Virus record (IMG/VR): IMGVR_UViG_3300008954_000037
Direction: 5' to 3' (one strand)
DNA: 64,000 nt
DNA from: an uncultured virus (IMG/VR IMGVR_UViG_3300008954_000037)
Lineage: Duplodnaviria > Heunggongvirae > Uroviricota > Caudoviricetes
Shown here: positions 19,695-51,683 of the stretch, piece after piece
Position numbering within the stretch: the stretch's first letter is position 1
Layout: each line of letters starts with the position of its first letter
Notes under the pieces: generated by a model
Told to the model about the DNA's origin: nothing
Databases searched by the model: none
What the model saw: only the letters and a program-made list of their open reading frames with translations
Program-made: the position numbers and the translations under genes

Positions 19695-20168
<474 letters not shown>

Positions 20169-24024: not shown

Positions 24025-24034
24025 GTTTCGATTT
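24017..24034 (+). promoter_or_regulatory. Representative copy of dispersed motif AAATCTGAGTTTCGATTT
   Basis: Identical copy at 43387-43404 and about 20 variants across the window; AAATC-N8-GATTT inverted arms. Confidence 0.7.
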
Positions 24035-24046
24035 TAGGAGGCCAAG

Positions 24047-24178: not shown

Positions 24179-24187
24179 GGGCCCAGC

Positions 24188-24973
24188 ATGGCAACCAACA
24201 AGTATCGCTACCGCGTCACCGGCCCTCGGGGCGGCAAGTACCTGACCACCACCCGCGCAGAAGCGGAGAAGCTGACCCGCCACGGCGGCAGCTTCCGTGC
24301 GCTGGGCCAGAAGAAGGCCAGCCGGGTCAAGAATCCTCAAGGGGTATGGGACGAGTCGTTCAAGGCGGGCTACGCTGCCGCCAAGCGGCTGTTGGCTAGG
24401 GTGGATCCCTGGACTCTGGACAGCACGGACGCAGCCCGCCGCTACAAGGCGGTGCGCCGCAAACACGGTGTGGATTGGAAGGAGGGCTTCATTGCGGCCA
24501 TCGACGAGGCCCGTGGCGCCTACGGCCAGTCTGGGGTGCGCCGGGCCCAGCGGCTCCATCGCAACCCCCTTCCGTGGTGCCTGCCCCCTTCCGAGGTGTC
24601 TGCGCTGTTCGCGGAGGGCCGGGTGAGCAAGGGTGAGTTGCGTGAGATCTACCCCGAGTGGTTTGACGGCAAAGGCAAGCAGATCGCCGGGTTCTTCCGC
24701 ATCACGGTCGAATCTCGGGGCGCCGATGGCAAACCCATCAAGGTCGGCGTTGCCATCCCCCTCCGCGCCAAAGAGGTGTTCTCGCGCCAGTGGCGTGGGA
24801 TCACCAAGCATTGGGGTTTCCGCAAGAAGGAGTCCTTCGCAGACATCAAGAAGGCCCTGATGACGGGCTACTACTTCGACGTGCTGGAGTTGTGTGAAGC
24901 CGACCACCCGCACCCCTACGACGCCGCCATCACCATCTTCCTGGGGAGGATGGAGAAGTACACCAAACGCTAG
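24188..24973 (+). CDS. Tagged modular protein 1 (tag-NP-module-NP-module)
   Basis: MATNKYRYRVTGPRGGKYL...RVKNP; internal HRNP. Confidence 0.85.
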   Translation: MATNKYRYRVTGPRGGKYLTTTRAEAEKLTRHGGSFRALGQKKASRVKNPQGVWDESFKAGYAAAKRLLARVDPWTLDSTDAARRYKAVRRKHGVDWKEGFIAAIDEARGAYGQSGVRRAQRLHRNPLPWCLPPSEVSALFAEGRVSKGELREIYPEWFDGKGKQIAGFFRITVESRGADGKPIKVGVAIPLRAKEVFSRQWRGITKHWGFRKKESFADIKKALMTGYYFDVLELCEADHPHPYDAAITIFLGRMEKYTKR

Positions 24974-24998
24974 AGAGATCTGAGCGAGGAGAACACCA

Positions 24999-25802
24999 AT
25001 GGCCAACTACAAGTACCGCGTCACCGGCCCCCGTGGCGGCAAATACCTCACCTCCACCCGCAAGGAGGCCGAGAAGCTCACGCGCCACGGCGGCAGCTTC
25101 CGGGCGCTGGGCCAGAAGAAGGCGTCGAAGGTGAAGAACCCTAAGATGGTCGTGGACTGGAAACGGCTGACCAAAGTTATCGGTTACGCACACCCAAAGG
25201 GGTCGTGGACGGTGGCGAAGGTCAAGGCGGCATTCAAGGAATACCACGCCACGGTCACGGACGCGGAGGCGCGGGCGCTGGTGAAGCGGTACAACGCAGG
25301 CGCCAGCAAGGTCAAGAACCCGGCGCGCGATGGCATGTATAGCAGCATGAATCCCAAGATCGAGGTCTGGATCGAGGGGTCCAGCCGGGTGACCACGACC
25401 CAGTGGTACAGCACCGTCAAAGCCGCCAAGGCGGCGGCGAAGCGGGCACACCCTGGCAAGAAGGTCGAGGCGTGGATTGCAGATAGCTCGGAGCGGGGCT
25501 CGGGTGGCAGGCGGCGCAACCCCAGGGCGCCTATTGGCGTGTGGGTCAAGCACGACTACAGCGACGGCAGCGGGAGTTGGTACACGATGGCGTTCAGGGG
25601 CCCTCCGACTGCCAGCGGAGTCTACGGCGGCGAGGTGGTGTGGGGGGACGACCCCTACAGCGACGGTTTGGTCTGGTTGCCCAAGATCCATGTCCTCGGT
25701 GGCGGCGATGTCTCAATCCCGCCGTATCACAAGACCTACAACACCCCCGAGGCGGCCAAGGCAGCCTTGGAAGCCTACGCTCGCCGGAAGCGTTACATCT
25801 GA
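24999..25802 (+). CDS. Tagged modular protein 2
   Basis: Tag + KVKNP; internal KVKNP and RRRNP; RBS aggag. Confidence 0.85.
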   Translation: MANYKYRVTGPRGGKYLTSTRKEAEKLTRHGGSFRALGQKKASKVKNPKMVVDWKRLTKVIGYAHPKGSWTVAKVKAAFKEYHATVTDAEARALVKRYNAGASKVKNPARDGMYSSMNPKIEVWIEGSSRVTTTQWYSTVKAAKAAAKRAHPGKKVEAWIADSSERGSGGRRRNPRAPIGVWVKHDYSDGSGSWYTMAFRGPPTASGVYGGEVVWGDDPYSDGLVWLPKIHVLGGGDVSIPPYHKTYNTPEAAKAALEAYARRKRYI

Positions 25803-25830
25803 GTTTCGATTTGCGAGAGGAGACAACACC

Positions 25831-26907
25831 ATGGCAGGCAAGTACAAGTACCGCGTGACCGGCCCTCGGGGCGGCAAATACCTCACGACCACCCGCCGCG
25901 AGGCCGAGAAGCTGACTCGCAACGGCGGCACCATCCGGGCGCTGGGCCAGAAGAAGGCGTCGAAGGTGAAGAACCCCGATCGACCCACACGGGGGGCGTT
26001 CAGCGAGACCGGCCTCGCCGCTGGGTGGATGCAGTCTGACGCGGAGGCGATTGATGAGGCGTGGGGCAACAACGACTGGGGCGAGTTGCATCGCATGGGC
26101 GTGATCAGCAACCGAGACATGGCGACCATCAAACGCCTGATGGCCAAGGAGGCCGCTGGGCGAATGATGACCGAGGGCGAGGACGAGGTGATGGGCATGA
26201 TCGGCGCGAAGGTGCGCCGGGCGGTGGATCACTACCGGGCAGAGGCGCGAGACTTCCGCCGACACTCCAATCGCAACCCTGGCATTGAGATCTTGTGGGG
26301 CGGCGGCGGCCAGGGCTTCATCAAGGGTGAGATCCCCGGCAGCCACGACCTGTTCACCATTGAGAAGGCCCACCTCACGGCGCCGTGGGTGTTGAAGTTC
26401 TACGAAGACGGCAGGATGCCGCCCCGTGTGCTGGACTACGGTAACAACGCCAACAAGCTCAAGAAGGCCGCCCAGCGGTACGTCGACACCGTGGCTGACC
26501 ATGTGCCGACGTTGGCCAAGTATCGGCGCAACCCCGACACTCGGATCGATTCTACTTTGCGTGGACTTTTGGAGGCCGCGTTGTGGAGCAGTTCTGACGA
26601 AGACGATGAGCCGCTCGACTCCAACTACAGCATCTACGACATTGATGAAGATTCCTTGGGCGTGATGTCTGGCAAGGTCGCGAAGTGGGAAGACGCCAAC
26701 TACGACCTCATCGAGAGGGCGATGTATTCCACCGGGCAGGACTACGAGCAGTTGGGGCACGATCTGTGGCTCACCTCTGCTGGTCATGGCGCCGGTTTCT
26801 GGGATGGAGATTGGGATCCCTACGGTGACGAGTTGACCGACGCAGCCAAGGAGTTCGGGGAGAAGTGGGTGTACGTCGGAGACGACGGCAAGCTGCACTT
26901 CCAGTAG
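25831..26907 (+). CDS. Tagged modular protein 3; acidic C-terminal module with GHDLWLTSAGHGAGFWD motif
   Basis: Start at MAGKYK with RBS gaggag; NRNP and RRNP linkers. Confidence 0.85.
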   Translation: MAGKYKYRVTGPRGGKYLTTTRREAEKLTRNGGTIRALGQKKASKVKNPDRPTRGAFSETGLAAGWMQSDAEAIDEAWGNNDWGELHRMGVISNRDMATIKRLMAKEAAGRMMTEGEDEVMGMIGAKVRRAVDHYRAEARDFRRHSNRNPGIEILWGGGGQGFIKGEIPGSHDLFTIEKAHLTAPWVLKFYEDGRMPPRVLDYGNNANKLKKAAQRYVDTVADHVPTLAKYRRNPDTRIDSTLRGLLEAALWSSSDEDDEPLDSNYSIYDIDEDSLGVMSGKVAKWEDANYDLIERAMYSTGQDYEQLGHDLWLTSAGHGAGFWDGDWDPYGDELTDAAKEFGEKWVYVGDDGKLHFQ

Positions 26908-26953
26908 TCGGAATCTGAGTTTCAATTTGTAGAAGTAGAGGGAGAGCAACATC

Positions 26954-28207
26954 ATGGCAGGCAAGTACAAGTACCGCGTGACTGGTCCCAGGGGCGGCAA
27001 GTATCTCACCTCCACCCGCAAGGAGGCAGAGAAGCTCACGCGCCACGGCGGCACCATCCGGGCTCTGGGGCAGAAGAAGGCGTCCAAGGTGAAGAACCCC
27101 CGCAAACACGACTACAGCGTGGTCCTCGCCAAGATCAAGACGGCCAACCGCTGGGCCGGCAAATACAACCGGGCGGTCAAGGCTGCGTTCGCCAAATACG
27201 GCAACGGAAACGGTCAGACAATTTCCGGCGTGGTGCGCGACCACTTCCCCTCCTCGGTCAAGGACGAACTGCGAAGGCTCATGCGGGGCTTCAACAACGC
27301 ACAGGACGCCGTGGGGGCGGCGTGGCACGCCGTCCACCCTCGCACCGATTTCTACCGCGCCGCCAAGGCAGCACCGTTCCGTGACAAGATGACGCAGGCG
27401 GGCTACTACGGCACGGGGCGCCGCAAGCGCCGCAACCCTGGCATTGAGATCTTGTGGGGCGAGGTGGGGACGTTGGTACGGTTCAAGGATCTGAAGGTGG
27501 GGGACCGTTTCAGAGTTCCGCACTCGTCGGCTTTGCTTGAGAAGGTGGGGGACAGCGGGTACATCTACATTCCGATGGAGGCAGGGGATCAGGTGCGAGA
27601 CTGGCATCTACCTCTCAAGGAAGTGATCCGCGTGGACGGTCGCAGGCGGAATCCCGCCGCCGACAAGAAGTGGCACGGTTTCGGTCCCGGCAGCCTGGAG
27701 TCGGTCAAGTGGAAGTGGCGCAAGCACCGGGGTGTTGATGAGGGCTGGACCGGCTCGTCTCAGATCGAATACTACGGTAGCTACACGGTCCACGGGCAGT
27801 TCGGGGAGACCGATGTGGGGGTGAGCGGCACCATCAACTTCCCCAGCGCGCCGCACAGGGTGAGCGAGGATGAGATCTTCGACGCCATCACCGAGAGCAT
27901 CGGCCACACACTTTCCGAAGGTGGCTGGGAGCCCGATTGGTGGTTTGAAGGCGGCGGTGATTTCGATCCGTCCGACGTGACGTGGTACTACGACGCCTTC
28001 TACGATGACGAGGATCCCGAAGCGGTCGTCACCATCTACACCCAAACCCCTCACGCCAACGAGGTGAAGGACGAGGTGCAGAGCGTGGCCGGATCGATGC
28101 TGGAGCAGGACGGTGACATGGTGTACGCCGTCGTGATGACTCACGATCTCCGGGCGGCGGTTGAGGAGTTGGTAGGCCATGGCTACGCCGTGGACGAGGA
28201 ATACTAG
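26954..28207 (+). CDS. Tagged modular protein 4; acidic C-terminal module
   Basis: Tag; two RRNP linkers. Confidence 0.85.
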   Translation: MAGKYKYRVTGPRGGKYLTSTRKEAEKLTRHGGTIRALGQKKASKVKNPRKHDYSVVLAKIKTANRWAGKYNRAVKAAFAKYGNGNGQTISGVVRDHFPSSVKDELRRLMRGFNNAQDAVGAAWHAVHPRTDFYRAAKAAPFRDKMTQAGYYGTGRRKRRNPGIEILWGEVGTLVRFKDLKVGDRFRVPHSSALLEKVGDSGYIYIPMEAGDQVRDWHLPLKEVIRVDGRRRNPAADKKWHGFGPGSLESVKWKWRKHRGVDEGWTGSSQIEYYGSYTVHGQFGETDVGVSGTINFPSAPHRVSEDEIFDAITESIGHTLSEGGWEPDWWFEGGGDFDPSDVTWYYDAFYDDEDPEAVVTIYTQTPHANEVKDEVQSVAGSMLEQDGDMVYAVVMTHDLRAAVEELVGHGYAVDEEY

Positions 28208-28217
28208 GAGCAACATC

Positions 28218-29333
28218 ATGGCAGGCAAGTACAAGTACCGCGTGACTGGTCCCAGGGGCGGCAAGTACCTCACCTCCACCCGCAAGGAGGCTGAGAAGCT
28301 GACCCGTCACGGCGGCACCATCCGGGCTCTGGGGCAGAAGAAGGCGTCCAAGGTGAAGAACCCCCGGCGCCGCAAGGCCGCCAAGACGCCCAAGTACCGC
28401 TGTGAGGTGTGCAGTCGTCCGCTGAAGAAAGGCGAGCAGATCACATGCCAGCCCTGCCACAACGAGCGGATCCAGGGCCTCCTGGGCAGTCCCGAGTGGA
28501 TGGAGGTGCGCGGCAGAACGCTCGTCGAACCCGATGGCCCCCGCTTCCGCAAGCCCGGCTGGACGCTGGCCAACGAGATGCGCTCGGAGATCCGAAACCC
28601 CCGAGGAGGCTACAACTACTGGATCACCTACGACTTCGTCACCCCCGAGAGCGCCGAGTACGGGGACGTGGAGCATCGAGGATTCTACCGCCCCGGCTGG
28701 GGTATGTACCCCTCTGACAAGTACGGTGAGGAGGCCAAGAAGGAACACGACGACGAGCGCCACCACGCCGCCAACATGCCCGAGTTGGTCAGCGATGTCG
28801 GACACTCGATGTACTGGCTGGAGTGGAGTAGCTCGCCTCCGTCCTCGGGCGATTGGCTCATCAGCGACTCCGAGGAGTTGGAGGACGACGACGGCAAGTG
28901 GGGATACATGAGCTTGGCGCTGCACATCGAGCGCGCCGATGGCAAGCCGCTGACCGTCGAGGAGATGCAGTACCTGCACGACAAGCTCGGCTTGATGGGC
29001 CCGAAGCCCACCGGGAAGAAGCATCGGTCTGGCAAGCGCAACCCCGGCGACTGGGCCGGGCGCGGCATCGACTTCAAGAACAAGTACCTCAACGACTTCT
29101 TCGCGGAGAAGGAGGTGCCCATCAAGACGTGGACCATCAAGGCGCCCTCCGGCATGGCGCACATCATCAACAGTCAGGCGGTGTTGGAGCATGTTGCTGT
29201 GGCGAGTCGAGGGGAGAAGAAGCAGATCTCAGACATGCTCCGACGCATCGACTTCGCCAACGGCGACGTGAACCACTTTCTGAAACACCTCGCAGGGGCC
29301 ATCGCCGCCAGCTACGAGTCGGACATCTTCTAG
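28218..29333 (+). CDS. Tagged modular protein 5 (C4 Zn-finger, VTPESAEYGD module, IDFANGDV module)
   Basis: Tag identical in protein to that of 26954; IRNP and KRNP linkers. Confidence 0.85.
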   Translation: MAGKYKYRVTGPRGGKYLTSTRKEAEKLTRHGGTIRALGQKKASKVKNPRRRKAAKTPKYRCEVCSRPLKKGEQITCQPCHNERIQGLLGSPEWMEVRGRTLVEPDGPRFRKPGWTLANEMRSEIRNPRGGYNYWITYDFVTPESAEYGDVEHRGFYRPGWGMYPSDKYGEEAKKEHDDERHHAANMPELVSDVGHSMYWLEWSSSPPSSGDWLISDSEELEDDDGKWGYMSLALHIERADGKPLTVEEMQYLHDKLGLMGPKPTGKKHRSGKRNPGDWAGRGIDFKNKYLNDFFAEKEVPIKTWTIKAPSGMAHIINSQAVLEHVAVASRGEKKQISDMLRRIDFANGDVNHFLKHLAGAIAASYESDIF

Positions 29334-29342
29334 GAGCCCGCC

Positions 29343-29975
29343 ATGGCCCGTGACAAGTACCGATACCGCGTGACCGGACCCAAGGGTGGCAAGTACCTGA
29401 CCACCACGCGCGCCGAAGCCGAGAAGCTCACGCGCAATGGCGGTAGTTTCCGCGTCATCGGACAGCGCAAGGCGTCCAAGGTCAGCAACCCCCACAAAGA
29501 GCAGGAATGCCCTGGTTGCGGCGGCTGGGGCCACGACGGAACCTGCGGCTGGTGTGGCGGCTCGGGGACCGTCCCGCCGCGCTCTGAGGCGTATCGCTTC
29601 TACGAGTGGGCTCACGGCCTCAGCAACGTCGACCTGTACCACTACTGGGCCCAGGCGCTCGATGTGCGCCACCAGAGCCCCCGCAACCTCGCCAAGTGGA
29701 AGGCCCTGTCAGCCGAGGTGGAGCGGCGCAAGAAGAACAAGCGCAGGGCGAAGAACCCCGGACACGGAGGGCTGGCGAAGATCCTCAAGCGCCGCAACCC
29801 AGACCTGTCCAACATCCCCACCGAGACCCTGGCCAGCTACATGGATATGCTGCAACAGTCCCACGGCGTCAACAGAGACGCCTACACGGCCCAGGAGCGC
29901 GAAGGCGCCAAAATCATAGGCAACGAGTTGCGAAGCCGAGGCTACGACGACCTGCCCGCATTTGCACGGCGTTAG
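29343..29975 (+). CDS. Tagged modular protein 6 (CxxCxGxG Zn-binding module)
   Basis: Tag variant; CPGCGGWG..CGWCGGSG; AKNP and RRNP linkers. Confidence 0.85.
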   Translation: MARDKYRYRVTGPKGGKYLTTTRAEAEKLTRNGGSFRVIGQRKASKVSNPHKEQECPGCGGWGHDGTCGWCGGSGTVPPRSEAYRFYEWAHGLSNVDLYHYWAQALDVRHQSPRNLAKWKALSAEVERRKKNKRRAKNPGHGGLAKILKRRNPDLSNIPTETLASYMDMLQQSHGVNRDAYTAQEREGAKIIGNELRSRGYDDLPAFARR

Positions 29976-29987
29976 AAGGAGAGACCA

Positions 29988-31892
29988 ATGACACGACGAC
30001 GCAACCCCCCGGCAGCATGGACGATGCACAATCCTTCCGGGCGCAGGGCGCCCGCCTCGCGTCGTCGAGGCAAGCGCCGCAACGCCGAGGAGATGGGCAG
30101 CACGGAGAACGTGGGCTGGTCGACCCTCAAGGAGTACGGCGACACATGGAAGGAGGCGTACTGGCGTGAGTTGGTTCAGAACAGCGTGGACGCCGGGGCG
30201 ACTCAGATCGACCTGTACGTCGAGGAGATCGGAGACGGCAACTTCATCGCCGGCTGCAAGGACAACGGCCACGGCATGACCGAGGAGGTCTTCCGGGGTA
30301 AGTTTCTCAAGCACGGTGGCACGACCAAGGTGTCGGGCTCTGGCGCCGCAGGAGGCTTCGGCGCCGCCAAGCGGCTGCTCCTGGCGCCGTGGGTGCAGTG
30401 GCAGATGCGCTCGGGCGACGTGGTGGCGGTGGGCCAGATGAGCCGGCACGAGGTCTGGGTCAGGGGCGAGCGCGTCACCCAAGGCCCCCAGGAGTTCAAC
30501 TTCCCGCCGCAGTGGCGGGGCAAGCCGTCCGTCAAGGGCGTCATCTTTGAAGCCGTCATGTCGCCTGAGCGGCACACGGACGCGGTCGCCGCACGGACGT
30601 GGCTGTCCAAGTGCTACCTGCCCCGCATCACGGTGAAGGTGGACGGCGTCAAGGCGCATGCACGGCTGAACCCACGCTCTGAGATGGGCACGGCCTTCTC
30701 GGTGCCCGTGATCGGCTACTCCATCAAGAACAAGTCGCCCTTTGACGACTCCTATGTGCTGGTCCGCACGGTCAGCGGGCCCAAGAAGGATAAGAAGCTG
30801 GCGATGTTCACCCAGAGGATCAGCAACAAGGTCGGGCGCGTCGTCGTGCTGGAGTTGCAGAGCCATAGCGTCAAATACCTCAAGGCCAGCCGCAACGACG
30901 CCGATGGGTGGTTTCGATACGAGATGTTGGAGTTGATCCAGAAGCTCAACATCAACCCCCGCAGCGCCATCAAGGGGCCCGAAAAGTACCAGAAGATCTT
31001 TTGGGGACCGGACGGCAACTACCGGGCCAGGATCAAAGCCGCAGAACGCGCCGACGCGATCAAGTCTGCTGCGGTTCTGGGGCCCACCGGAGAGGTAGGG
31101 GGCGGCCTCTCCGGTGAGCAGGCCGAGACCATCGAGGACGCGGTCGAGCGGGTGCGTGGAGAGGTGCAGAAGGAGGAGCGCGAAAAGTCGAAGTGGGAGA
31201 AGGAGGAGGACAAGAAGGAAAAGACCTTCCAGCCCGCCACCGAGGCCGCGACGAAGGTGATCGTGCAGGAGGCCGGCATCGACACCCCGGAGCAGCAGGA
31301 GGCGTTGGTGCGCCAGTTGGTCTGGACGCCCAACTTCTTCCTGTACAGCGACATCGACGGCTACAAGGTGCCGCGCAAGTATCGCCCGGTGACCATGGGC
31401 AAAGGGCCCAAGGAGTTGATGGAGGCGTGGGTTGAGATATGCCGCTACGTTCTCGTCCTGCTCGGCTGCCCCTTCCAGTACGGCGTGGGCTACATCTTCA
31501 GCGACAGCACCGCCGCCGCGTACACCTACCAGGGCGACGAGAATGGCCCCAACACGCACTGGCTGCTGCTGAACCCGCACAAGGACTTCAAGGAGATCTT
31601 GACAGGCAAACCACCGCTGTGGAACCTCAAAAAAGAAGAAGACTTGCGCTGGGTCTACGCCTGCGCGGTCCACGAGGCCACACACATGGCCAACGGCATC
31701 TCCGACCACGATGAGGAGTTCACCAGCGCGTTCACGCACAACATCGCCAAGTGCGCTGATGGGTTCACTCGCGTCAAAGAGCTGCTCGGTTACGCGCCGC
31801 CCAAGAAGGCTGACCGCTCAGGCCGGCTGCCGGCGCGGCGGGGACGGCGGGTCACTGTCGATCCCAAGCAGCGTGGCCTGTTCGATTTCTGA
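29988..31892 (+). CDS. GHKL (HSP90-like) ATPase fused to C-terminal HExxH metallopeptidase-like domain
   Basis: RELVQNSVDAG, DNGHGM, GGFG motifs; VHEATH..HDEEF; basic RRNP leader. Confidence 0.8.
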   Translation: MTRRRNPPAAWTMHNPSGRRAPASRRRGKRRNAEEMGSTENVGWSTLKEYGDTWKEAYWRELVQNSVDAGATQIDLYVEEIGDGNFIAGCKDNGHGMTEEVFRGKFLKHGGTTKVSGSGAAGGFGAAKRLLLAPWVQWQMRSGDVVAVGQMSRHEVWVRGERVTQGPQEFNFPPQWRGKPSVKGVIFEAVMSPERHTDAVAARTWLSKCYLPRITVKVDGVKAHARLNPRSEMGTAFSVPVIGYSIKNKSPFDDSYVLVRTVSGPKKDKKLAMFTQRISNKVGRVVVLELQSHSVKYLKASRNDADGWFRYEMLELIQKLNINPRSAIKGPEKYQKIFWGPDGNYRARIKAAERADAIKSAAVLGPTGEVGGGLSGEQAETIEDAVERVRGEVQKEEREKSKWEKEEDKKEKTFQPATEAATKVIVQEAGIDTPEQQEALVRQLVWTPNFFLYSDIDGYKVPRKYRPVTMGKGPKELMEAWVEICRYVLVLLGCPFQYGVGYIFSDSTAAAYTYQGDENGPNTHWLLLNPHKDFKEILTGKPPLWNLKKEEDLRWVYACAVHEATHMANGISDHDEEFTSAFTHNIAKCADGFTRVKELLGYAPPKKADRSGRLPARRGRRVTVDPKQRGLFDF

Positions 31893-31912
31893 GTTTCAAA
31901 ATTGGACGTGAC

Positions 31913-34129: not shown

Positions 34130-34135
34130 CGAAAA

Positions 34136-34402: not shown

Positions 34403-34407
34403 GATGA

Positions 34408-34665: not shown

Positions 34666-34666
34666 T

Positions 34667-37600
34667 ATGAGCGATGTTCGGACAGCGAAGGGTTGGTACA
34701 AGGGCGGTTGGCGCTATCACGCCACGTCGTCTGATGGTCAGATCGCGCTCACCACGACGATGGCCGAAGCGGTCAAGATCGGCGGGGGCAACCGCGTCTG
34801 TCAGATCACCGCCGCCGGCAAGCTCAAGCCCCTGCGGCGGGAGCAGATGAAGAAGGCCAACCCTCGACGCCCCACCGCCGCGCAGACGTTCTACCTCGAC
34901 GGGGAGAAGACGACCTGGGCGCAGTTTGCCAAGGCCAACAAGGACGACCCGGACACGCTGGCAGAGGTGCAGGAGTGGCTCCAGGGCCCGGCCCCGGACC
35001 TGTGGCTCGGTGGTGGCGCCTGGGCCAGCTACTTCCTGACCAAGCGGCGCTCCAACCCCGACGACGCGGCGCCCAAGGCCAAGCCCAAGAAGCGCAAATG
35101 GAAGAAGTCCACCCACACGGCCCGCGTGCTGGAGCCTCGGACGCTGACCCACGCTGAGATCGGAGCCCTCACCCACGCCGCCGCGTGGCTGTACGACGCT
35201 CAGATCGACGCCCAGAAGATCAAGGACGACACAGGCTTCTCCAACGCCGACCTGACCGTGGGCGCCATCGCCCGAGAGCCCGAGTTTTGGACCACCGCCG
35301 ACCCCGAGGTGATGGCTGGCGCAGCCCTGGTCATGCGGAAGTACCGCGATCAGGCCGGACCCGAGGTCTATGACGCAGCGCGGCAGGCCATGGTCAACGC
35401 TGGCGTGGACGAGTTGGACAAGGCGCAGGCGAAAAGGGCGCGCAAGGCCATCAGCCACGTCGCCAAGCGGCGCACCATCACCACATCCAAGACCCGCGCC
35501 AACGAGTTGAAGCGGGTCTACGTCGAGCGGGAGGGCGCCGTCCTCGACATCTTCCGTGACGCGGCGAGCAAGGCGCTGGGCAACATCATCAGGGACGTGT
35601 GGCCTCGTGGCCGCTACATGATGAACCGCAGCAACTGGCACTGGGAGGTGGCCTACACCACCGCCAGCGAGTGGCAGGAGTTTGTGCGACAGGTGCGGGA
35701 CGCCGGGTGGACCATCGTGTTCCCCGACGACACCGAGGCCACCGCACGGGCGACCTACTCCAGCCAGTTGGACTTGGATGGGCTGGCTGAGACCGAGGAC
35801 GAGGCCGCTGCGAAATCTGACTTTGAGATTTTGGGCCTCCGCAACCTCAAGGCGGAACACGCCCTGACCATCATCTGGCCTAACAACAAGCCACAGAGCA
35901 AGGATGTCAACGCGGTCCTCAAGGGCAAGGGCTGGGGCTGGCAGTTTGGTCAGCAGCTTCAGGGGCGCGACGGCAAGTTGCACGACTCCAACAGCGCCAA
36001 CATCCCGTATCGGAGGGTGTTTGAGATCCTCAAGACCTTCGTTCAGAAGGGTTGGCTCGACGTGGAGCGTGGCAACAAGGCCCTGGAGGTCATCGGCAGC
36101 AGCTACCGCCTTGCTGAGGGTGGCGAGCTTGTGGACTTGGAGCCGGACGCGGCGCCTGTGGTCACCGCCACCGTTGAGGTCCGGGGGCGTAGCATTCTGG
36201 TACGCTGGCTCAACGACAGCGACGACAAGTGGGGCTTCCAGGGCGCGTTCAAGGGTAGCGGCTTCAAGTGGGATTGGAAGTCGGACCCGGCCTGGACAGA
36301 GGTGAAGGGCCCGGCCACCAAGTGGGCCAAGTTTGTGGACATCCTCAGCCGGAGCCCGCAGCCCGCGCTGGCGCAGACGCTCAAGGAGGCGTTGGGTCAG
36401 TCCATCGGCCCTGCCGTGGACCCGACCAGGGCCAAGCTGGTCATGCCGGCGCGCGTCAAGCTCTACGACCATCAGGAGCCGGGCATCCGCTTCCTCATGG
36501 GGCGCGACACCGCGCTGTTGGCTGACGACATGGGCCTGGGCAAGACGTTGGAGGCCATCATCGCCGCTGAGACGGTGGTGCCGGCTGGCAAGAAGATTCT
36601 GGTCGTCTGCCCCGCCTCGGTGACCCACAACTGGGCTGAGGAGGTGCTGAAGTGGTCGGACGTGCCCGCCAGCAAGATCAACGTCCTGATCAGCAAACCC
36701 GTCCAGAAGCGCCCCATCGAGTCCAGCACCATCAAGCGCAACGCGCGCTGGGTCATCGTCAGCTACGCCTCGGGGCGCAAGACGATGAAGAAGAAACTCG
36801 ACGCGGTGGACTGGGGCGCGGTCATCTTCGATGAGGCGCACCGCACCAAGAACACCAAGACGCAGAACCACAAGATGGCCGCTGGCCTGCACGCAGGGCG
36901 CAAATGGCTGTTGACCGGCACCGCGATGCAAAATCGACCCGCCGATCTCTGGGGGATCATTCGGGTTTTGGACCATCCGCTCACCCGCATGAGAGAGCGG
37001 CTGTGGATGGATGGGATCACCTCCTACGGCGAGCGGACCCGGCGCGGCGGCGGCAAGCGTGAGTTTAGGGGTTGGGAAGCCTTCATGGTCAAGTACGCCG
37101 ATGGTTGGCAGGGCAAGTGGGGCTGGGAGACCAAGGGCGCCAGCAACACCGCCGACCTGTCGGCCAAGATGTCGGATGCCATGTTGCGTCGGACCAAGGA
37201 CGAGGTCTTGGACCTGCCCGGCAAGAATCGCATCGATCGGCGCGTCATCGTGCCTTCGGGGCTGGCCAACAGGGGTTTCAAGGACATCGGTGAGTTGTCC
37301 AAGCTGCGCGGTCAGTTGGCGGCGGCCAAGGCGTCGGCCACCATCGAGGCGGTCAAGGACGTGCTGGAGGCTGAGGACAAGGTGGTGGTGTTCAGCGGCT
37401 ACATCAAGGTGCTGGACGACCTTCAGAAGGCGTTGACCAAGGCTGAGATCGGCTGGGTTCGCGTGGATGGCAGCGTCACTGGGGCTGCTCGTCAGCGGGC
37501 CGTCAAGGCGTTCCAGACCGATCCCAGCGTCCGGGTGTTCATCGGTCAGATCGTGGCCGCTGGTGAGGGCATCACGTTGACCAAGGCTCGGACGGTCATT

Positions 37601-37879
37601 TTCAACGACTACGCGCTTGTGCCGGCCACCCACAGCCAAGCGGAAGACCGCATTTATCGCATCGGCCAGACGGCGTCACAGCCGGTGTCGATCGTGTACA
37701 TGGAGTCTAATGCGACGTTGGATGAGATCGTGGGCGACATGCTCAAGCATAAGATGTCGATGATCGACAGGTTTGAGGGGGGTCTGGTGCCTCCGGGGGC
37801 CGGTGAGATCACCTTCGCAGATCTCCGCGCCGCCATGGCTTCCGAGTCACAGAGAAACCCAAAGCGATTGTGGAGGTAG
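34667..37879 (+). CDS. SNF2-family helicase 2 (1070 aa) with degenerate tag and NP-delimited N-terminal modules
   Basis: ADDMGLGKT, DEAH, LTGTAMQN, GEGITLT, QAEDRIYRIGQ. Confidence 0.9.
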   Translation: MSDVRTAKGWYKGGWRYHATSSDGQIALTTTMAEAVKIGGGNRVCQITAAGKLKPLRREQMKKANPRRPTAAQTFYLDGEKTTWAQFAKANKDDPDTLAEVQEWLQGPAPDLWLGGGAWASYFLTKRRSNPDDAAPKAKPKKRKWKKSTHTARVLEPRTLTHAEIGALTHAAAWLYDAQIDAQKIKDDTGFSNADLTVGAIAREPEFWTTADPEVMAGAALVMRKYRDQAGPEVYDAARQAMVNAGVDELDKAQAKRARKAISHVAKRRTITTSKTRANELKRVYVEREGAVLDIFRDAASKALGNIIRDVWPRGRYMMNRSNWHWEVAYTTASEWQEFVRQVRDAGWTIVFPDDTEATARATYSSQLDLDGLAETEDEAAAKSDFEILGLRNLKAEHALTIIWPNNKPQSKDVNAVLKGKGWGWQFGQQLQGRDGKLHDSNSANIPYRRVFEILKTFVQKGWLDVERGNKALEVIGSSYRLAEGGELVDLEPDAAPVVTATVEVRGRSILVRWLNDSDDKWGFQGAFKGSGFKWDWKSDPAWTEVKGPATKWAKFVDILSRSPQPALAQTLKEALGQSIGPAVDPTRAKLVMPARVKLYDHQEPGIRFLMGRDTALLADDMGLGKTLEAIIAAETVVPAGKKILVVCPASVTHNWAEEVLKWSDVPASKINVLISKPVQKRPIESSTIKRNARWVIVSYASGRKTMKKKLDAVDWGAVIFDEAHRTKNTKTQNHKMAAGLHAGRKWLLTGTAMQNRPADLWGIIRVLDHPLTRMRERLWMDGITSYGERTRRGGGKREFRGWEAFMVKYADGWQGKWGWETKGASNTADLSAKMSDAMLRRTKDEVLDLPGKNRIDRRVIVPSGLANRGFKDIGELSKLRGQLAAAKASATIEAVKDVLEAEDKVVVFSGYIKVLDDLQKALTKAEIGWVRVDGSVTGAARQRAVKAFQTDPSVRVFIGQIVAAGEGITLTKARTVIFNDYALVPATHSQAEDRIYRIGQTASQPVSIVYMESNATLDEIVGDMLKHKMSMIDRFEGGLVPPGAGEITFADLRAAMASESQRNPKRLWR

Positions 37880-37883
37880 GGTG

Positions 37884-40727
37884 ATGGCTCCGACCCCAAA
37901 TCAAGTCGCACAGTGGACCGCCGAGGGGTGGCGCTACTACGTCCCCTCAGCCGGCGTGCTGACGACCACCAAGCGCGAGGCCGAGAGGTACGCGAAGGGG
38001 TCGAAGATCTACGCCCTGGTCAAGCCCGGCAAGGCGAGGGTGCGACACGCCTCCCGCAAGACTGACCGCTTCGACGAAGACCCCGGCGTGTGTGGCCAGT
38101 GCGGCGACCCCATGCACTACTGCCAGTGCGATTTCGGCTGGAACACCCACTACGAGGGCTGGGGCAAGGACCACCAGTACGAGGGCGAAGCCGCCCGGAA
38201 GCGCCGCCAGCGCCGGGACAAGGCCGGCAACCCCATCGCCCCCGACTGGTGGTGGGATGCGTGGAAGGTGATTGACAAGGAGGCCGACAAGCTCGTCAAG
38301 ATCAAACGCGCCACCGGCAACCGCTCGGCCCAGGCGCTCAAGCAGAAGGCCAAGGTCGAGAAGTTGGAGAGGGCCGCCTACGCCCGCCGTGAGCGACTTT
38401 TGGCGGAAAAGGGCAACAAGAACCCCCAGAGGGGCAACAAGAGGGGTCGTGCTGCCCCCTCGGCCTCCAGGCGTCGGCGCAACCCGAAGCGGGTGCCTGT
38501 CGGAGACTGCTTCGCCTGGGCTTCCAAGCGGGTGGGCGAGAGGGACATCGACTGGTCTGACCCGGACATCAACGTGGTTCACGCCACCGTCGCGCCGAAG
38601 TGGCACGACCGCCCCTACGAACACGCCTGGGTGGAGATGCACGGCAAGGCGTTCGACTGGCAGACGCACAGTACCAAGCCCGAGGGCCTCTCGATCAAGG
38701 ACTTCTACGATCACTATCAGCCGATCAAGGCCACCATTCAGCGATACTCTCCAGAGGAGGCGGTGCTGTATCCGATGCCCGCACATGCGGGGCACTACGG
38801 CCCCTGGACGGACACTCCCCGCCCTAAAGGGCGCATCAAGCGGCGCAACCCTGCCGATCAGGTCGACCTGTTCGCCGGATTCGCTCAGAAGCCGCGTAAG
38901 GCCCGCAAGGCGTCCAAGGCGTCCACCAAAGCGTCCAAACCCCCGAAAACGGCTCCAGCGCGCTCTCAGGCGCCGCAACCGGGTGTTCTGTGCGACCCTG
39001 GACCTCTGATCAAGGAGCGCACGTCGGCGGGTCCGATTTCGGACGCGGCTCTGCCCGACCACAGCATCGCGGAGACAACGTGGAAGGTGGTGGACCTGTC
39101 CAAGCTGTTGTGGAGCAACCAGTGGAACAACGGCGAGACCATCACCGCCTACCCCAAGGTCTACCAGCCTCGGGATCGGCGCCGCCCGTCCTACCGCGAC
39201 CAGCACCGCGACATCGTCAAGTATTTCAACCCTGAGATCTTGATGTGGGCCGCTACCGCCCAGCAGGGCGCCCCCATCGTGGTGGACGACCCGAAACTGT
39301 CCAAGAAGCTCATCGTGGCCAGTGGCAACGGTCGGACGATGGCCCTGGCCGAGATCTACCTCCGCACAAAGCCCGGCAGCAAGACCGCCCCGGTGTGGCC
39401 TGGGAAGCAGAAGGCGTACAGGGACGAGTTGAACCGCTGGTCGAGCCTGCTGGGTATCACGATCCCGGCCAACATCAAGCATCCGGTCCTCGTTCGGGTA
39501 CTCGACAGCAGCGTGGACGGCCCGCACTTCGCCCGGTTGGCCAACGAGACCCTCATCGCGGAGTTGAACGCCACCGAGCAGGCCATCAAGGACGCCAACA
39601 AGATGTCGTTCGCGGTGGCCGACAAGTACGTCCCGTTCACCGCCAAGACGGACAAGGAGACGGGCATTGTCACCTACAAACCTGTCAACGTGGGCGGCCC
39701 GAAGAACAAGCCTTTCGTGGAGGCGTTCATCCGCACGGTGGCCGGCGAGGGTGCCCGAAACGAGTTGATGACGGTCACCCCACAGGGGAAGCCGAAGTTG
39801 TCCGACACCGGCATCCAGCGCATCGAGTACGCGCTGTTCCGATTCGCCTACGGGTCGGCGGTGGACGATGTGCTGATCTACCTGACGGAGCAGGAGGTGC
39901 CTACGGCATCGTCGCTGTTGCGCGGGTTGATGTGGTCGGCGGCGTACTGGATCGCCTTTGAGCGTGAGGTGCGTGAGGGTCGTATGGAGGAGCGGTATGA
40001 CCTGCGGAAGTCGTTGGTCACGGCGGTGCTGAGGGCGATGCGGTCCAAGGAAAACTTCGGCCTGACCCCCATCGAGGCGGCGTGGAGCCACGACCTGTAT
40101 GCGGGGGATGTGGAGTCTGACAACATCGAGGTGTACTGGATGCGGGCGTTCTACCGGGCGATCCCTGGGAAGATCTCCAACACCTCCCTGGCCGACGTGT
40201 GCCGCGAATACTGCGCCGAGGCCATCGCCATCTCCTCGCCGGCTGCGCTGGCCAGCACGCAAAACTTCGACCTGTTCGGCGTTGTCGGAGAGGTCAAGGA
40301 ACGCGCCGCTGCGGCGGCGACGTTGCCCCCTTCGGAGTTTCTGGCCCGGTCTATCGCCACCGCGTTGTTCAACGAACCGTTCGCCCCGCGCTTCACCAAG
40401 ACGGGCAAGGTTGTGCGTGACGTTGAGACCAAGCTGATGCCCACGTCTCTGGCTGATGTGGCCCGGTCGGCTGGAGAGACCCTGTGGGAGATCTGTCAAT
40501 TCTGGGACACCCAGTGGCAGGGTTGGCTCATCGACTGGGCCACCGCCGTCAAGGGGTCCAAACGGCGCCTGACGTTCAAGGCGGCCCGCAAGGAGGCTTG
40601 GCGCTGGTTCCAGATTGGCGTGCGCCCCAACCAGCGGCAGGACAACATCAAGGCGTTCGACAGGCACATCAAAGGCAACGCAGTCTACGCCGCAGCAGAC
40701 AAGGCGTGGAAGGCATCGCTCAAGTGA
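37884..40727 (+). CDS. Polyvalent protein: degenerate tag, Zn finger, papain-like domain, DdrB-like ParB domain
   Basis: Start MAPTP with RBS ggagg; YQPRDR..GAPIV..SGNGRTMAL..PVLVR..FARLAN ddrB-ParB pattern; GDCF..HAWV..DWQT. Confidence 0.8.
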   Translation: MAPTPNQVAQWTAEGWRYYVPSAGVLTTTKREAERYAKGSKIYALVKPGKARVRHASRKTDRFDEDPGVCGQCGDPMHYCQCDFGWNTHYEGWGKDHQYEGEAARKRRQRRDKAGNPIAPDWWWDAWKVIDKEADKLVKIKRATGNRSAQALKQKAKVEKLERAAYARRERLLAEKGNKNPQRGNKRGRAAPSASRRRRNPKRVPVGDCFAWASKRVGERDIDWSDPDINVVHATVAPKWHDRPYEHAWVEMHGKAFDWQTHSTKPEGLSIKDFYDHYQPIKATIQRYSPEEAVLYPMPAHAGHYGPWTDTPRPKGRIKRRNPADQVDLFAGFAQKPRKARKASKASTKASKPPKTAPARSQAPQPGVLCDPGPLIKERTSAGPISDAALPDHSIAETTWKVVDLSKLLWSNQWNNGETITAYPKVYQPRDRRRPSYRDQHRDIVKYFNPEILMWAATAQQGAPIVVDDPKLSKKLIVASGNGRTMALAEIYLRTKPGSKTAPVWPGKQKAYRDELNRWSSLLGITIPANIKHPVLVRVLDSSVDGPHFARLANETLIAELNATEQAIKDANKMSFAVADKYVPFTAKTDKETGIVTYKPVNVGGPKNKPFVEAFIRTVAGEGARNELMTVTPQGKPKLSDTGIQRIEYALFRFAYGSAVDDVLIYLTEQEVPTASSLLRGLMWSAAYWIAFEREVREGRMEERYDLRKSLVTAVLRAMRSKENFGLTPIEAAWSHDLYAGDVESDNIEVYWMRAFYRAIPGKISNTSLADVCREYCAEAIAISSPAALASTQNFDLFGVVGEVKERAAAAATLPPSEFLARSIATALFNEPFAPRFTKTGKVVRDVETKLMPTSLADVARSAGETLWEICQFWDTQWQGWLIDWATAVKGSKRRLTFKAARKEAWRWFQIGVRPNQRQDNIKAFDRHIKGNAVYAAADKAWKASLK

Positions 40728-40768
40728 GATATGCTCTCGGGCGCGAAATCTGAGTTTGGAGATTTACG

Positions 40769-42724: not shown

Positions 42725-42727
42725 ATC

Positions 42728-43387
42728 ATGGGATGTACAGTTTGCATGGCGGCGCTTGCGGGGATCACCGATACCAAGGTCGGCTGGACCGTCAAGAAGG
42801 TGGTCAAGCCGGTCAAGTACAGCAACGGGGCCGGGACCAAGATCTTGGGCACCTTCAAGGTCGGCACAGTCCTGCGGGTCTACACCAACTGGCCCGGCGC
42901 CGGCAAAGGGCTCGTCATGTTTGAGCGCGCCCCCCCGCCCGGTGGCTACTGGTCCACCTACGTCGAAGGCAAAGGCCCCAACCACTCCGCGTGGATGGCT
43001 GACGAGGCCAACATCCTCAAGCGCATGGGTTGGACCCTCAAGAGCGCCCTCGGCCCCGTCAGCCCATACGAAGCCTCCAAGACGGGGGGCGTGAGCAGTG
43101 GCGGGACCGGCGACGGCCAGAGCGCCAGCGACACTGAAGGGCAGGGATCTGAGGACACGGTCGGGGAGGAGGGCACCCCCGGCAGTAGCATCGGCATGGG
43201 CTCCGAAGTAGGCCCCGGCAGCACCACCTTCAAGAAGGAGGAGTTGGACCAGTATCTGCCGACCCCGAGCCAGGGGCCCATGGGAGTCCCGTGGTGGATC
43301 TACGCCGCCATTCCCGCCGGAGTGGTGTGGGGCGCCCCCGCTGCGCTGGCGGCAGGGGGCATCACCTGGGCCGTGACCCGTAGCTGA
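42728..43387 (+). CDS. Membrane-anchored protein with G/S linker
   Basis: C-terminal hydrophobic segment. Confidence 0.7.
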   Translation: MGCTVCMAALAGITDTKVGWTVKKVVKPVKYSNGAGTKILGTFKVGTVLRVYTNWPGAGKGLVMFERAPPPGGYWSTYVEGKGPNHSAWMADEANILKRMGWTLKSALGPVSPYEASKTGGVSSGGTGDGQSASDTEGQGSEDTVGEEGTPGSSIGMGSEVGPGSTTFKKEELDQYLPTPSQGPMGVPWWIYAAIPAGVVWGAPAALAAGGITWAVTRS

Positions 43388-43422
43388 AATCTGAGTTTCG
43401 ATTTCCGAGAGAGGAGAACAAA

Positions 43423-44406
43423 ATGACTGTCAAGTTTCTGAACCCTGCCGTGGCATCTGAGGCTGTCATCAGCCACGCCGCCAACATGCTCCCCGAGGCC
43501 AACCCGGCGCCCGACAACGCCGAGGAGTTGCACATCGTCGACTACGACCGTGAAGCCGTGCTGCTCCAGGCGCCGTCTGGCTGGGTGCCCGGTGAGGAGG
43601 CCGACTTCCGAGGTCAGGGTCCGAAGGGTGAGTTGTCCAAGGCCGCCCGCGAACACGCCAAGGAAGAAAACCTGAAGCTGTACAGCGGCAACAAGCGGAT
43701 CAATCCCTCCAGGCCCCGTGGTCGAGCCATCACGCTCAATCAGGCCAAGAAGCTGCGCCATGGCCAGATCATCTACATGCGCTCCAACCTCAACGCGGAC
43801 GGCACGGCGGTGCGCTGGCGCGTCACCGGGACACCCAAGGTGTGGGTGCGGTCGCCGGAGCGCGTCTCGGTACCCCTCAAGCACGGGATGCGGCATTACG
43901 GTCACCTGACTGAAGACAACCTGAGCCACTTCACCCTCAAGGAGCCGCCACAGGTCAAGAAGGGCCGCAAGCGCAACCCCTCCAGTGACGTACTCTGGGA
44001 GAAGGGCCAGTGGACCTTGCAGGCCATCCCTGTGGGTGACTACGGGCGTACACGGCTGATGCTTGAGAAGACGGGCAAGGACGGTTGGGCCGACGTGATT
44101 GACTACCCGACGCATTACGGCGATGGCAAGATGGGTTATGACCGGCCCGAGGTGATCCCGAAGTCCGTCCAGAAGGCGGTCAGCAAGACCCTGGTCGAGA
44201 TGACAAGGCGTTCTATCGATCACGGCCAGGACAAGAAGGGTCGCAAGAGCCGCAACCCGGCCAAGGGCAAGAAGGCGCCGATCTACCGCTACCACGTCAC
44301 CGGGCCCAGGGGCGGCAAGTACCTCACCTCGACGTTCGACGAGGCGCGGGCGTTGACCAAGAACGGTGGCACCATCAAGAAGTTGAAGAAGCCCTGTAAG
44401 GGATAG
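43423..44406 (+). CDS. NP-delimited modular protein with C-terminal copy of the tag
   Basis: Ends IYRYHVTGPRGGKYLTSTFDEARALTKNGGTIKKL; INP, KRNP and SRNP linkers. Confidence 0.85.
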   Translation: MTVKFLNPAVASEAVISHAANMLPEANPAPDNAEELHIVDYDREAVLLQAPSGWVPGEEADFRGQGPKGELSKAAREHAKEENLKLYSGNKRINPSRPRGRAITLNQAKKLRHGQIIYMRSNLNADGTAVRWRVTGTPKVWVRSPERVSVPLKHGMRHYGHLTEDNLSHFTLKEPPQVKKGRKRNPSSDVLWEKGQWTLQAIPVGDYGRTRLMLEKTGKDGWADVIDYPTHYGDGKMGYDRPEVIPKSVQKAVSKTLVEMTRRSIDHGQDKKGRKSRNPAKGKKAPIYRYHVTGPRGGKYLTSTFDEARALTKNGGTIKKLKKPCKG

Positions 44407-44415
44407 GAGATCATC

Positions 44416-44808
44416 ATGGCACAGAACAAATGGAAGCGTGGCAAGGACTACCCTGGTGGAGAGACCCAATACTCGTGGTGGAAAGGTGGGCGGGCCATTG
44501 CCCACGTCACCAAGCGCGGGAACGTCTGGAGTCTGTCGTTCGGGGGATCCAACCACGGGACGTTCCCCACCGCCAAGGCGGCCAAGGCCGATGCGGAAGC
44601 AACACAGGCCCGCATGGAGGCGAGGGCCCGTCGCCACAGGCGTAACCCCTGCAAGGCGCGCAACCCGGCCAAGGGCAAGAAGATCTACAAGTACAAGGTC
44701 GTCGGGCCCAGGGGCGGCAAGTACCTCACCTCGACCATGGCCGAGGCGCGGGCGCTGACCAAGAACGGTGGCACCATCAAGAAGCTGAAGAAACCCCGCA
44801 AGGGGTAG
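44416..44808 (+). CDS. Small modular protein with C-terminal copy of the tag
   Basis: RRNPCKARNP, then IYKYKVVGPRGGKYLTSTMAEARALTKNGG. Confidence 0.85.
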   Translation: MAQNKWKRGKDYPGGETQYSWWKGGRAIAHVTKRGNVWSLSFGGSNHGTFPTAKAAKADAEATQARMEARARRHRRNPCKARNPAKGKKIYKYKVVGPRGGKYLTSTMAEARALTKNGGTIKKLKKPRKG

Positions 44809-48691: not shown

Positions 48692-48698
48692 GTACTGG

Positions 48699-51681: not shown

Positions 51682-51683
51682 GG

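Follow-up and report, generated by a model that had tools for sequence, protein, structure and literature searches.

A portable basic mini-domain on the mosaic proteins of a probable virus, and its possible role as a packaging or delivery address

Why should a series of outwardly dissimilar proteins carry one and the same short basic peptide at an end, and what might this peptide do for them? The question is raised by positions 24188-44808 of a 64,000-nucleotide stretch of DNA (the window, by which we mean this stretch at its full length) recorded as an uncultured virus (IMG/VR IMGVR_UViG_3300008954_000037; Caudoviricetes). A preliminary description of the locus had noted that six consecutive genes begin with the same peptide (hereinafter the tag) and diverge directly after an Asn-Pro (NP) dipeptide, that the same unit closes two further genes and, in degenerate form, opens three more, and had suggested that it addresses a set of unrelated cargo proteins to the virion, genome or a delivery apparatus. 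We find that the tag is one constant, terminal module of a 'beads-on-a-string' protein family, whose other modules are shared and shuffled between proteins at junctions made of basic residues followed by Asn-Pro, and we propose that it might serve as a common handle for packaging or delivery.

The tag is approximately 45-48 residues long. A hidden Markov model (HMM) of it, scanned against all 1130 six-frame open reading frames (ORFs) of at least 30 residues in the window, recovers exactly eight strong copies (E 3.5e-24 to 9.9e-33), all on the + strand. Six of these are N-terminal and lie in the consecutive genes starting at 24188, 24999, 25831, 26954, 28218, and 29343, namely copy 1 (24188..24337, residues 1-50 of gene 24188..24973, with a K-N-P end placing the NP at residues 49-50; E 9.9e-33), copy 2 (24999..25142, gene 24999..25802, NP at residues 47-48; E 7.5e-32), copy 3 (25831..25977, gene 25831..26907, NP at residues 48-49; E 5.5e-32), copy 4 (26954..27100, gene 26954..28207; E 1.1e-32), copy 5 (28218..28364, gene 28218..29333; E 1.8e-32), and copy 6 (29343..29492, gene 29343..29975, whose body shows a CxxCxGxG-type zinc-finger motif; E 1.5e-31). 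The other two are C-terminal, viz., copy 7 (44260..44406, gene 43423..44406), preceded by S-R-N-P with the NP at residues 278-279 (E 2.5e-25), and copy 8 (44668..44808, gene 44416..44808), preceded by A-R-N-P (E 3.5e-24) and with a sub-cut-off match to DUF7196/phrog_2069. The six N-terminally tagged genes are each provided with a separate ribosome-binding site of the GGAG type; the DNA similarity among the copies starts about 10 nucleotides before the ATG and stops sharply after the K-N-P codons, beyond which the six proteins continue into six different module families.

The copies at 26954 and 28218 are separated by five synonymous and no non-synonymous differences over 44 codons (TAT/TAC, GCA/GCT, CTC/CTG, ACG/ACC, and CGC/CGT), precisely the five codon pairs named previously. 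In all 15 pairs of N-terminal copies the ratio of non-synonymous to synonymous change (dN/dS, by Nei-Gojobori counting) lies between 0 and 0.31, with dS ranging from 0.17 to 1.27 and reaching 0.9-1.27 in seven of the pairs. Because dN/dS stays within 0-0.31 while dS rises to 1.27, the copies are old, the peptide has been maintained by selection, and recent duplication alone is no explanation for it. The preliminary description thus stands as regards the peptide shared by six N-terminal and two C-terminal genes, the divergence right after the NP, and the selection acting on the peptide; its view of the tag as a unit portable to either protein end likewise holds, both in the window and in the wider family.

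To what extent does the tag recur beyond this locus? The tag is rare: when 1.84 billion protein cluster representatives were screened with a 21-tag profile (E <= 1e-3), 66 proteins were retrieved, of which 64 are true representatives; the other two (P0064 and P0065) were rejected as artefacts, being fn3, cadherin, and SpaA repeat proteins matched over many short stretches. The tag is N-terminal in 44 of the 64, C-terminal in 13, internal in three, and stands alone in four (57-71 residues); it is accordingly terminal in 57 of the 60 fused forms, and in one family protein two tags occur in tandem. A Pfam scan of 54 representatives left 41 without any family, and the partners recognized in the remainder are SNF2 (3), ddrB-ParB (1), PcfJ-like (3), DUF2958 (1), GNAT (1), and LRV repeats (2); a further protein (P0042) combines the tag with an HExxH motif. 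Two related metagenome contigs (L002 and L003) each display an array of six consecutive tagged genes, and in distant lineages the tag is found at about 50 % identity. The profile search that had been proposed as a check therefore comes out in favor of recurrence on variable cargo: since the tag recurs in this manner in L002, L003, and the 64 representatives, it is not a one-off duplication. The array of the window itself is found nearly unchanged in marine/seawater metagenome runs of two studies, one of which is possibly its source, and the public sequencing runs listed with the array include no RNA dataset. At the level of tblastn (E <= 1) the tag is absent from 50,697 phage and 72,556 plasmid records, and in 185,579 species, represented by one genome each, six pattern matches yielded no confirmed case. 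Positions 24000-45000 of the window have no megablast match among phages, a match to the viral contig L001 was dropped as a 12-residue chance similarity (HMM E 9.5e-4 to 7e-3), and neither the GHKL protein described below nor ORF 8895 has relatives among viral contigs.

As to its identity, the tag matches no curated family above threshold, in agreement with the earlier statement that it is not a described one; in NCBIfam there is only sub-threshold MutL, SNF2, and coiled-coil noise. For DUF7196 (PF23826) the best whole-protein score of 18.8 bits falls below the gathering cut-off of 27, leaving room for a distant relationship. When isolated tag copies are considered, one of 11 matches DUF7196 (E 1.7e-4) and two of 11 match phrog_2069 (E 2.5e-4), these being C-terminal copies; both are profiles of about 68 residues and of unknown function, and our literature search found no paper mentioning DUF7196. 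An AlphaFold2 model built on an alignment of 21 sequences has a β-β-α-β arrangement (strands at residues 7-10, 16-19, and 34-37; helix at 22-28) with a mean predicted local distance difference test (pLDDT) value of 75.8 and a floppy basic tail. The composition is striking in its charge, with 11-13 K/R versus 2 D/E in 44 residues, and a G-P-R-G-G loop is conserved. The model thus suggests that the ~45 residues of the tag form a strongly basic mini-domain able to fold on its own. Foldseek against the PDB with the tag model gave no match at E <= 1e-3; a VIA-wide search gave 27 rows at Z >= 2, the best of them (Z 3.0) a designed EEHE mini-protein; and the best ESM Atlas score with the tag (0.80) is in the chance range. 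A PDB profile match to designed dTor repeats was rejected, as it concerns a 22-residue strand/helix-cap motif repeated 9-12 times; no natural counterpart emerged from the Foldseek, VIA, or PDB profile searches. The guess of a fold like that of L9-N or the RNase H1 hybrid-binding domain received no support, neither being present among the Foldseek or VIA rows for a domain that is too small for a firm answer. A prediction of a two-copy tag complex (score 0.05, mark 0.42) gives no verdict on self-association.

What, then, is attached to the tag? Here the preliminary description, which regarded the cargo proteins as unrelated, has to be corrected: their bodies are mosaics of modules that occur in differing orders and are common to the window and the related tagged proteins. 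The modules are bounded by a basic run and then Asn-Pro, with the consensus (K/R)(R/K)(R/K)-N-P, the next residue being small or variable; in the array of six tagged genes (24188..29975, +) modules of about 60-185 residues are joined by (K/R)(K/R)(K/R)-N-P. The motif [KR]NP is seen 28 times in the 17 cluster proteins as against 1.8 ± 1.3 expected (maximum 7) from 1000 within-protein shuffles, and six times in the 42 other proteins of the window, where 1.7 ± 1.3 are expected. Across 71 family proteins totaling 27,058 residues, a set that takes in the window's own proteins and close variants and is hence non-independent, NP is observed 245 times versus 52 ± 7 and [KR]NP 152 times versus 8.2 ± 2.7, NP being the most enriched of the 400 dipeptides (4.7-fold). 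The NP junctions have a median spacing of 83 residues, corresponding to a typical module of about 80 residues, and the tagged proteins comprise three to five NP-bounded modules apiece. Among 36 non-identical tagged proteins, 713 of the 1367 internal BLAST block ends fall no more than five residues from an NP versus 156 ± 12 for random placement, a count to which the tag's own end adds. Cutting at the basic-NP sites and clustering results in 29 module families with at least two members and 34 singletons; many of these families are found in several neighbor contexts (modules D, E, and F in four each), and two modules (K and G) match stand-alone phage families just past an NP (phrog_1915, E 4e-24; phrog_6004, E 3e-11). 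The codons used at the N and P positions are those of the gene background; therefore, the signal resides in the peptide rather than in the DNA, and NP as a DNA-level recombination signal was rejected. The tag is itself one such module, with K-N-P at its end when N-terminal and R-N-P before it when C-terminal.

Two neighboring observations concern the composition of these modules. Directly after the tag, residues ~56-78 of the protein encoded by 29343-29975 (+) and the family protein P0045 share a CxxCxGxG-type (DnaJ-like) zinc finger, the two proteins being otherwise different; in P0045 the zinc finger is followed by a PcfJ-like domain. A 277-residue protein encoded at 12806-13639 (+) consists over its first ~85 residues almost entirely of Lys/Arg with four NP motifs, continues into a hydrophobic stretch and a Gly-rich tail, and adjoins the jelly-roll candidate discussed below; if its NP junctions were cut, protamine-like basic peptides would result, which might condense DNA.

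Other observations relate to the exchange of modules. In other marine runs, contigs of the tag array (window 24000-30100) break at tag repeats, and out-of-order joints are seen at tags (25933>25099 in two runs and 28207>26944 in one); one run has a 2416-base skip from 25819 to 28236, the shorter side of which extends for only 23 letters. In the protein P0004, parts of genes 25831 and 26954 meet at a junction common to both, making it a natural hybrid. The pattern suggests recombination between tag repeats or, alternatively, assembly joins induced by the repeats.

The tagged genes belong to a co-oriented cluster (24188-44808) that further encodes a GHKL-type ATPase, two SNF2 helicases (Pfam E 1e-33 to 7e-37), and a ddrB-ParB protein of 947 residues (Pfam E 2.7e-19). 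The GHKL-type ATPase (29988..31892, +; Pfam HATPase_c_3, E 1.3e-7) starts with M-T-R-R-R-N-P, has a conserved C-terminal HExxH...HD motif, and is encoded directly after the tagged array in the window and in the contigs L003 and L005. In its full-length orthologue P0031 (30 % identity, E 3e-75) the HExxH...HD motif is retained, and a tag sits precisely between two NP junctions, at a point where the protein of the window has none. The difference between the two orthologues is direct evidence for movement of the tag as a cassette, its gain and loss taking place exactly at (K/R)3-N-P junctions. A second candidate for a GHKL orthologue (L007:1465-3381) was rejected in light of its 24 % identity, gappy alignment, and want of a Pfam match.

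The DdrB-like ParB core (~residues 375-690 of the protein encoded by 37884..40727; 39000..39950, +) is recovered by tblastn in phages D6 and P7 and in a 'DarB-like antirestriction protein', among others, with 29-34 % identity and E down to 3e-21 over alignments that cover only 28-33 % of the query. It further matches 593 plasmids, 568 of them non-mobilizable, which we take to be P1-like phage-plasmids. Upstream of this core, the same protein contains a Cys...His...Asp module (residues 200-322; 38481..38858, +) flanked on both sides by R-R-N-P, and a paralogous module is present in the product of 3695..4663 (+; BLASTP E 3e-9), with the alignment starting from the NP in both proteins. This duplicated module is possibly a papain- or transglutaminase-like peptidase, although Pfam gives no match for it. 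The adjacent 4657-5730 (+) is a 357-residue ORF with an HExxH motif (H-E-L-G-H), one H-R-N-P, and no family match, and may encode another zincin-like peptidase. In the related contigs L007, L009, and L011, all three genes downstream of the SNF2 gene contain LPD1 ('large polyvalent protein-associated domain 1'); L010 has an ArdA anti-restriction gene directly upstream of a tagged gene, and L007 a GH25 lysozyme upstream of its tagged SNF2.

Does the tag also head the helicases and the ParB protein, as had been claimed on the basis of degenerate copies? With a second HMM, made of 58 family tags from which the degenerate copies themselves were left out, the three rank 9th-11th of the 1130 ORFs, each at an N-terminus, and the next ORF has E 2.6. 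They are found at 31913..32047 (+) in the SNF2 helicase 31913..34129 (E 0.12, with a K-R-N-P end), at 34667..34864 (+) in the SNF2 helicase 34667..37879 (E 2.2e-4), and possibly at 37884..38060 (+) in the DdrB-ParB protein 37884..40727 (E 0.14). In related contigs clear tags stand at the head of giant SNF2 proteins (L007, 1572 residues; L009, 1629; L010, >1117), and they likewise head the SNF2 proteins P0039 and P0062. The helicase core of P0039 is homologous to that of SNF2-34667 (E 1e-36), and BLAST aligns their N-termini too. An intermediate form of the tag (E 0.0044) is N-terminal in the SNF2 protein of L011, and the SNF2-31913 orthologues in L003 and L005 have the same degenerate form (E 0.02-0.03). 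Because clear and intermediate tags thus head SNF2 proteins of related contigs, the degenerate copies, while weaker than the strong eight, are credible as diverged tags; the claim is supported for both SNF2 helicases, and the copy on the ParB protein stays marginal.

How might these elements function together? Taking as models the Dar proteins that phage P1 packages, the internal proteins of T4, and the polyvalent proteins, we propose, tentatively and at somewhat less than an even chance, that the tag is a handle by which all these proteins are addressed for packaging or delivery and that the NP junctions are processing sites. Through the tag, which would bind either a structural receptor or the packaged DNA, every chain would be loaded into the particle or the transfer apparatus, and the anti-restriction arsenal would thus accompany the DNA into the next host. 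The junctions of basic residues and Asn-Pro might then be cut by a peptidase encoded by the element, candidates for which are the HExxH protein 29988 and the Cys/His modules, or alternatively by self-cleavage at Asn-Pro, and such cutting would release the modules and remove the tag. A more specific form of this proposal, which we regard as doubtful, is that each tagged gene encodes a 'pro-arsenal', namely one address domain followed by effectors of about 80 residues on cleavable (K/R)3-Asn-Pro linkers, which would be freed in the new host and freely swappable by recombination, in a large bacterial virus that may have a jelly-roll capsid.

Several observations weigh against the tag being an address and the junctions being processing sites. 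Capsid, portal, terminase, packaging ATPase, and conjugation families were found in none of 103 ORF scans, at strict or relaxed thresholds, and the only plausible gene with a Walker A motif is the primase-helicase; the jelly-roll model considered below is of low confidence, with all Z <8 and with phage cement proteins and non-viral β-sandwiches scoring alike. The tag was not found in 2.9 million viral contigs, the related contigs lying outside that collection. Pfam peptidase models (including MPTase) match neither the HExxH nor the Cys/His regions. A basic-NP is also present at the extreme N-termini of 29988, P0028, and P0058, where cleavage would free nothing useful; these could be remnants of gene fission at a junction. 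Finally, the four stand-alone tags and the tandem tag protein suit an autonomous binding domain over a pure signal, and the SNF2 helicases and ParB-family protein that bear the tag are both of DNA-acting kinds.

The last two points lead to the foremost rival of the address handle, that the tag is a small nucleic-acid-binding domain which, inside the cell, tethers DNA-acting enzymes and other modules either to the DNA of the element itself or to nucleic acid of the host, any co-packaging being a side effect of this binding; we judge this possible, if rather unlikely. The charge of the tag (net ~9-11 positive) and its conserved G-P-R-G-G loop agree with it, as do the short solitary forms and the tandem duplicate; furthermore, in polyvalent proteins the DNA-binding ArdC-N domain, too, is preferentially N-terminal, according to the available sections of Iyer et al., 2017 (PMC5512222). 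However, no known nucleic-acid-binding fold or family was matched in searches that are weak for so small a domain, distant members (e.g., P0070) lose the basic character, and the terminal position of the tag in nearly all fused forms is not demanded of a DNA-binding domain; it would also have to be explained why the same DNA anchor is placed on six consecutive heterogeneous proteins. If DNA binding is the means of co-packaging, this alternative overlaps with the address handle.

We consider it improbable that the tag docks instead to a partner other than a receptor of the virion or transfer apparatus, or that it mediates co-assembly of the arsenal. The GHKL/HExxH protein might be such a partner, with the role of a chaperone, a loader, or an activator, as might a scaffold-like acidic protein or a factor of the host. 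The terminal position suits a docking handle, and the GHKL/HExxH gene directly follows the array in the window, L003, and L005; against this, its orthologue P0031 carries the tag itself, which would be odd for a receptor. Three acidic or coiled-coil proteins encoded upstream (8895-10439, 11941-12717, and 21301-22116, all +), with a long E/R-rich helix and poly-D/E runs, are scaffold-like in sequence and could be electrostatic partners pairing with the basic tag. The last alternative, that the tag has no common function and is a leader of tandem paralogues alike by recent duplication or gene conversion, draws on the tandem placement of the six genes, on two pairs 90-96 % identical in DNA over the tag, and on the out-of-order tag joints in other runs (possibly assembly artefacts), but it is largely refuted by the dN/dS values, with the peptide retained in many pairs at a near-saturated dS of 0.9-1.27, and by a distribution across lineages and architectures in which the tag is also C-terminal and is fused to SNF2, ParB, GHKL, PcfJ, DUF2958, and GNAT in distant lineages, and we hold it to be very unlikely.

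An address to a particle presupposes a particle, and whether the element is a virus must hence be considered. We think that it probably is. The window encodes a D5-type primase-helicase, a DEAD helicase, a tyrosine integrase (55850..56941, -), and sugar-modifying genes. The best candidate for a structural protein is ORF 13709..14443 (+), whose nearest Atlas clusters are 86-100 % viral and whose only Pfam-bearing neighbors in the Atlas belong to the capsid families PM2-P2 and PRD1-P3, though the score is low (~0.77). Its AlphaFold model is a jelly roll (mean pLDDT 58.7), which best matches the capsid protein VP4 of SPV1 (Z 7.6 over 148 residues), followed by HCIV-1, HHIV-2, and P23-77, these best matches being capsid proteins of viruses with an internal membrane. 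This model, given its low confidence, weakly supports a viral nature. After it follow small β-rich ORFs (14531-15064 and 15954-16379/16389-16811), the last two of which are clear paralogues, and the modeled layout of 13709-16811 recalls that of internal-membrane viruses with two single-jelly-roll capsid proteins. The element, of about 75 kilobases, would be far larger than the known viruses of that type.

A further hint of a virus is that many small membrane proteins flank the cluster, together with an ORF resembling lytic transglycosylases and an SGNH-like ORF. Directly after the last tagged gene, the small product of 44818-45285 (+) combines a repeat rich in Pro/Glu with a DNA-binding motif of the SAP type at its C-terminus (Pfam SAP, E 0.005, below the cut-off). 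The region behind it (45287-46754, +), following the C-terminally tagged genes, encodes a 56-residue membrane protein and then two further ORFs, one membrane-anchored with a lytic-transglycosylase-like motif (recognized by eye; no Pfam match) and the other with an initial G-D-S, a weak SGNH match (E 0.08), and a C-terminal membrane helix; these may constitute an entry or lysis module. Upstream, the protein of 19647-20168 (+) comprises more than 20 Gly-Asn dipeptide repeats and then a C-terminal membrane helix, its Pfam TrAA12 match being probably a low-complexity artefact. Around the tyrosine integrase, 48573-58347 contains genes for glycosyltransferases, two hexapeptide acyltransferases, a radical-SAM enzyme, and a GFO/IDH/MocA oxidoreductase. 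No transfer RNA or Rfam family was found in the window, and no attachment repeat around the integrase; the genes surrounding it may be the element's own or the host's.

Some elements are known to inject an arsenal of proteins with their DNA, and in P1 a signal common to such proteins was sought without success; here a single portable domain marks a set of them across a lineage, with a uniform junction motif as the boundary of their modules. If the tag is an address, it would allow injected effectors of uncultured viruses to be recognized from sequence, and it would offer a natural cassette scheme by which foreign proteins could be loaded into particles, and some thirty new candidate anti-defense modules; if the more specific form with cleavable linkers is true, the locus would represent a standardized plug-and-play cassette system for injected proteins. 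If the tag binds nucleic acid instead, the mini-domain would be a new one, distributed in a very unusual manner.

It remains to set this organization beside known systems. In MuF-fused polymorphic toxins, too, the terminal domain is constant and the bodies attached to it vary and recombine. The tagged proteins showed neither MuF nor any other known trafficking domain, and no toxin domains were recognized in them. The capsid-targeting sequence of T4, a peptide about 10 residues long, is confined to the N-terminus and cleaved at (L/I)xE. The tag differs from it in being a predicted folded domain of ~45 residues, in its C-terminal placement in 13 of 64 representatives, and in having basic-N-P beside it. 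More generally, trafficked effectors, e.g., secreted toxins, are usually built of variable bodies and a terminal domain that stays the same (available sections of PMC5512222), and in the T4 internal proteins a shared N-terminal address is followed by a protease site through which the address is removed after assembly (available sections of PMC9024508). Self-cleavage at Asn-Pro, with the NP as the scissile bond, is described for RsgI, reovirus mu1, and aquareovirus VP5 in the accessible part of PMC10328401. The invariant NP of the junctions is a likeness to these autoproteolytic proteins; in the latter, however, NP occurs once and in a specific folded context, whereas here it comes after a basic run, two to five times per protein, and between modules.

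As a kind of system, an arsenal of polyvalent proteins that is injected to counter restriction is already known; our literature search, which was not exhaustive, found no description of a shared folded tag at either terminus, of an invariant (K/R)3-N-P junction, or of tagged-gene arrays. As presented in the available sections of Iyer et al., 2017 (PMC5512222), polyvalent proteins are multi-domain chains with SNF2, DdrB-ParB, LPD, and peptidase domains and much domain shuffling, in which the peptidase domains are proposed to cut the chains into units, and DdrB-ParB is confined to the phage-type ones, predicted to be packaged and injected. The present system resembles them in combining several unrelated domains per chain on a mobile element with an integrase and a primase-helicase, and the hallmarks LPD1, ddrB-ParB, and SNF2 are present in the window or its syntenic relatives. 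The counterpart of their zincin-like MPTase might be sought in the HExxH motifs of 29988 and its orthologues, 4657-5730, and P0042, none of which has a Pfam peptidase match. Unlike in polyvalent proteins, the arsenal is spread over many medium-sized tagged genes rather than one giant protein, most of the modules fall outside the described LPD families, and the junctions are uniformly (K/R)3-N-P, a motif that, like the tag, goes without mention in the available sections of PMC5512222.

Lastly, the parallel with the Dar proteins of P1 is stronger than had been claimed, in that the ParB core of the window is homologous to the DdrB region of P1/P7/D6. In P1, the first 30 residues of DarB suffice for capsid targeting of a reporter, and BLAST reveals no N-terminal consensus common to the Dar proteins, as reported in the available sections of Gonzales et al., 2022 (PMC9024508). 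Here, in contrast, one folded module is shared by eight to 11 proteins and at either end, the helicases are of the SNF2 type, and packaging, which was observed in P1, is a proposal. Pfam recognized no methyltransferase domain in the cluster, where no search was made with DarB, DarA, Hdf, DdrA, or Ulx. Like the P1 system, however, the cluster encodes large putative anti-restriction proteins together, among them a ParB protein of the DdrB type and one that contains a helicase.

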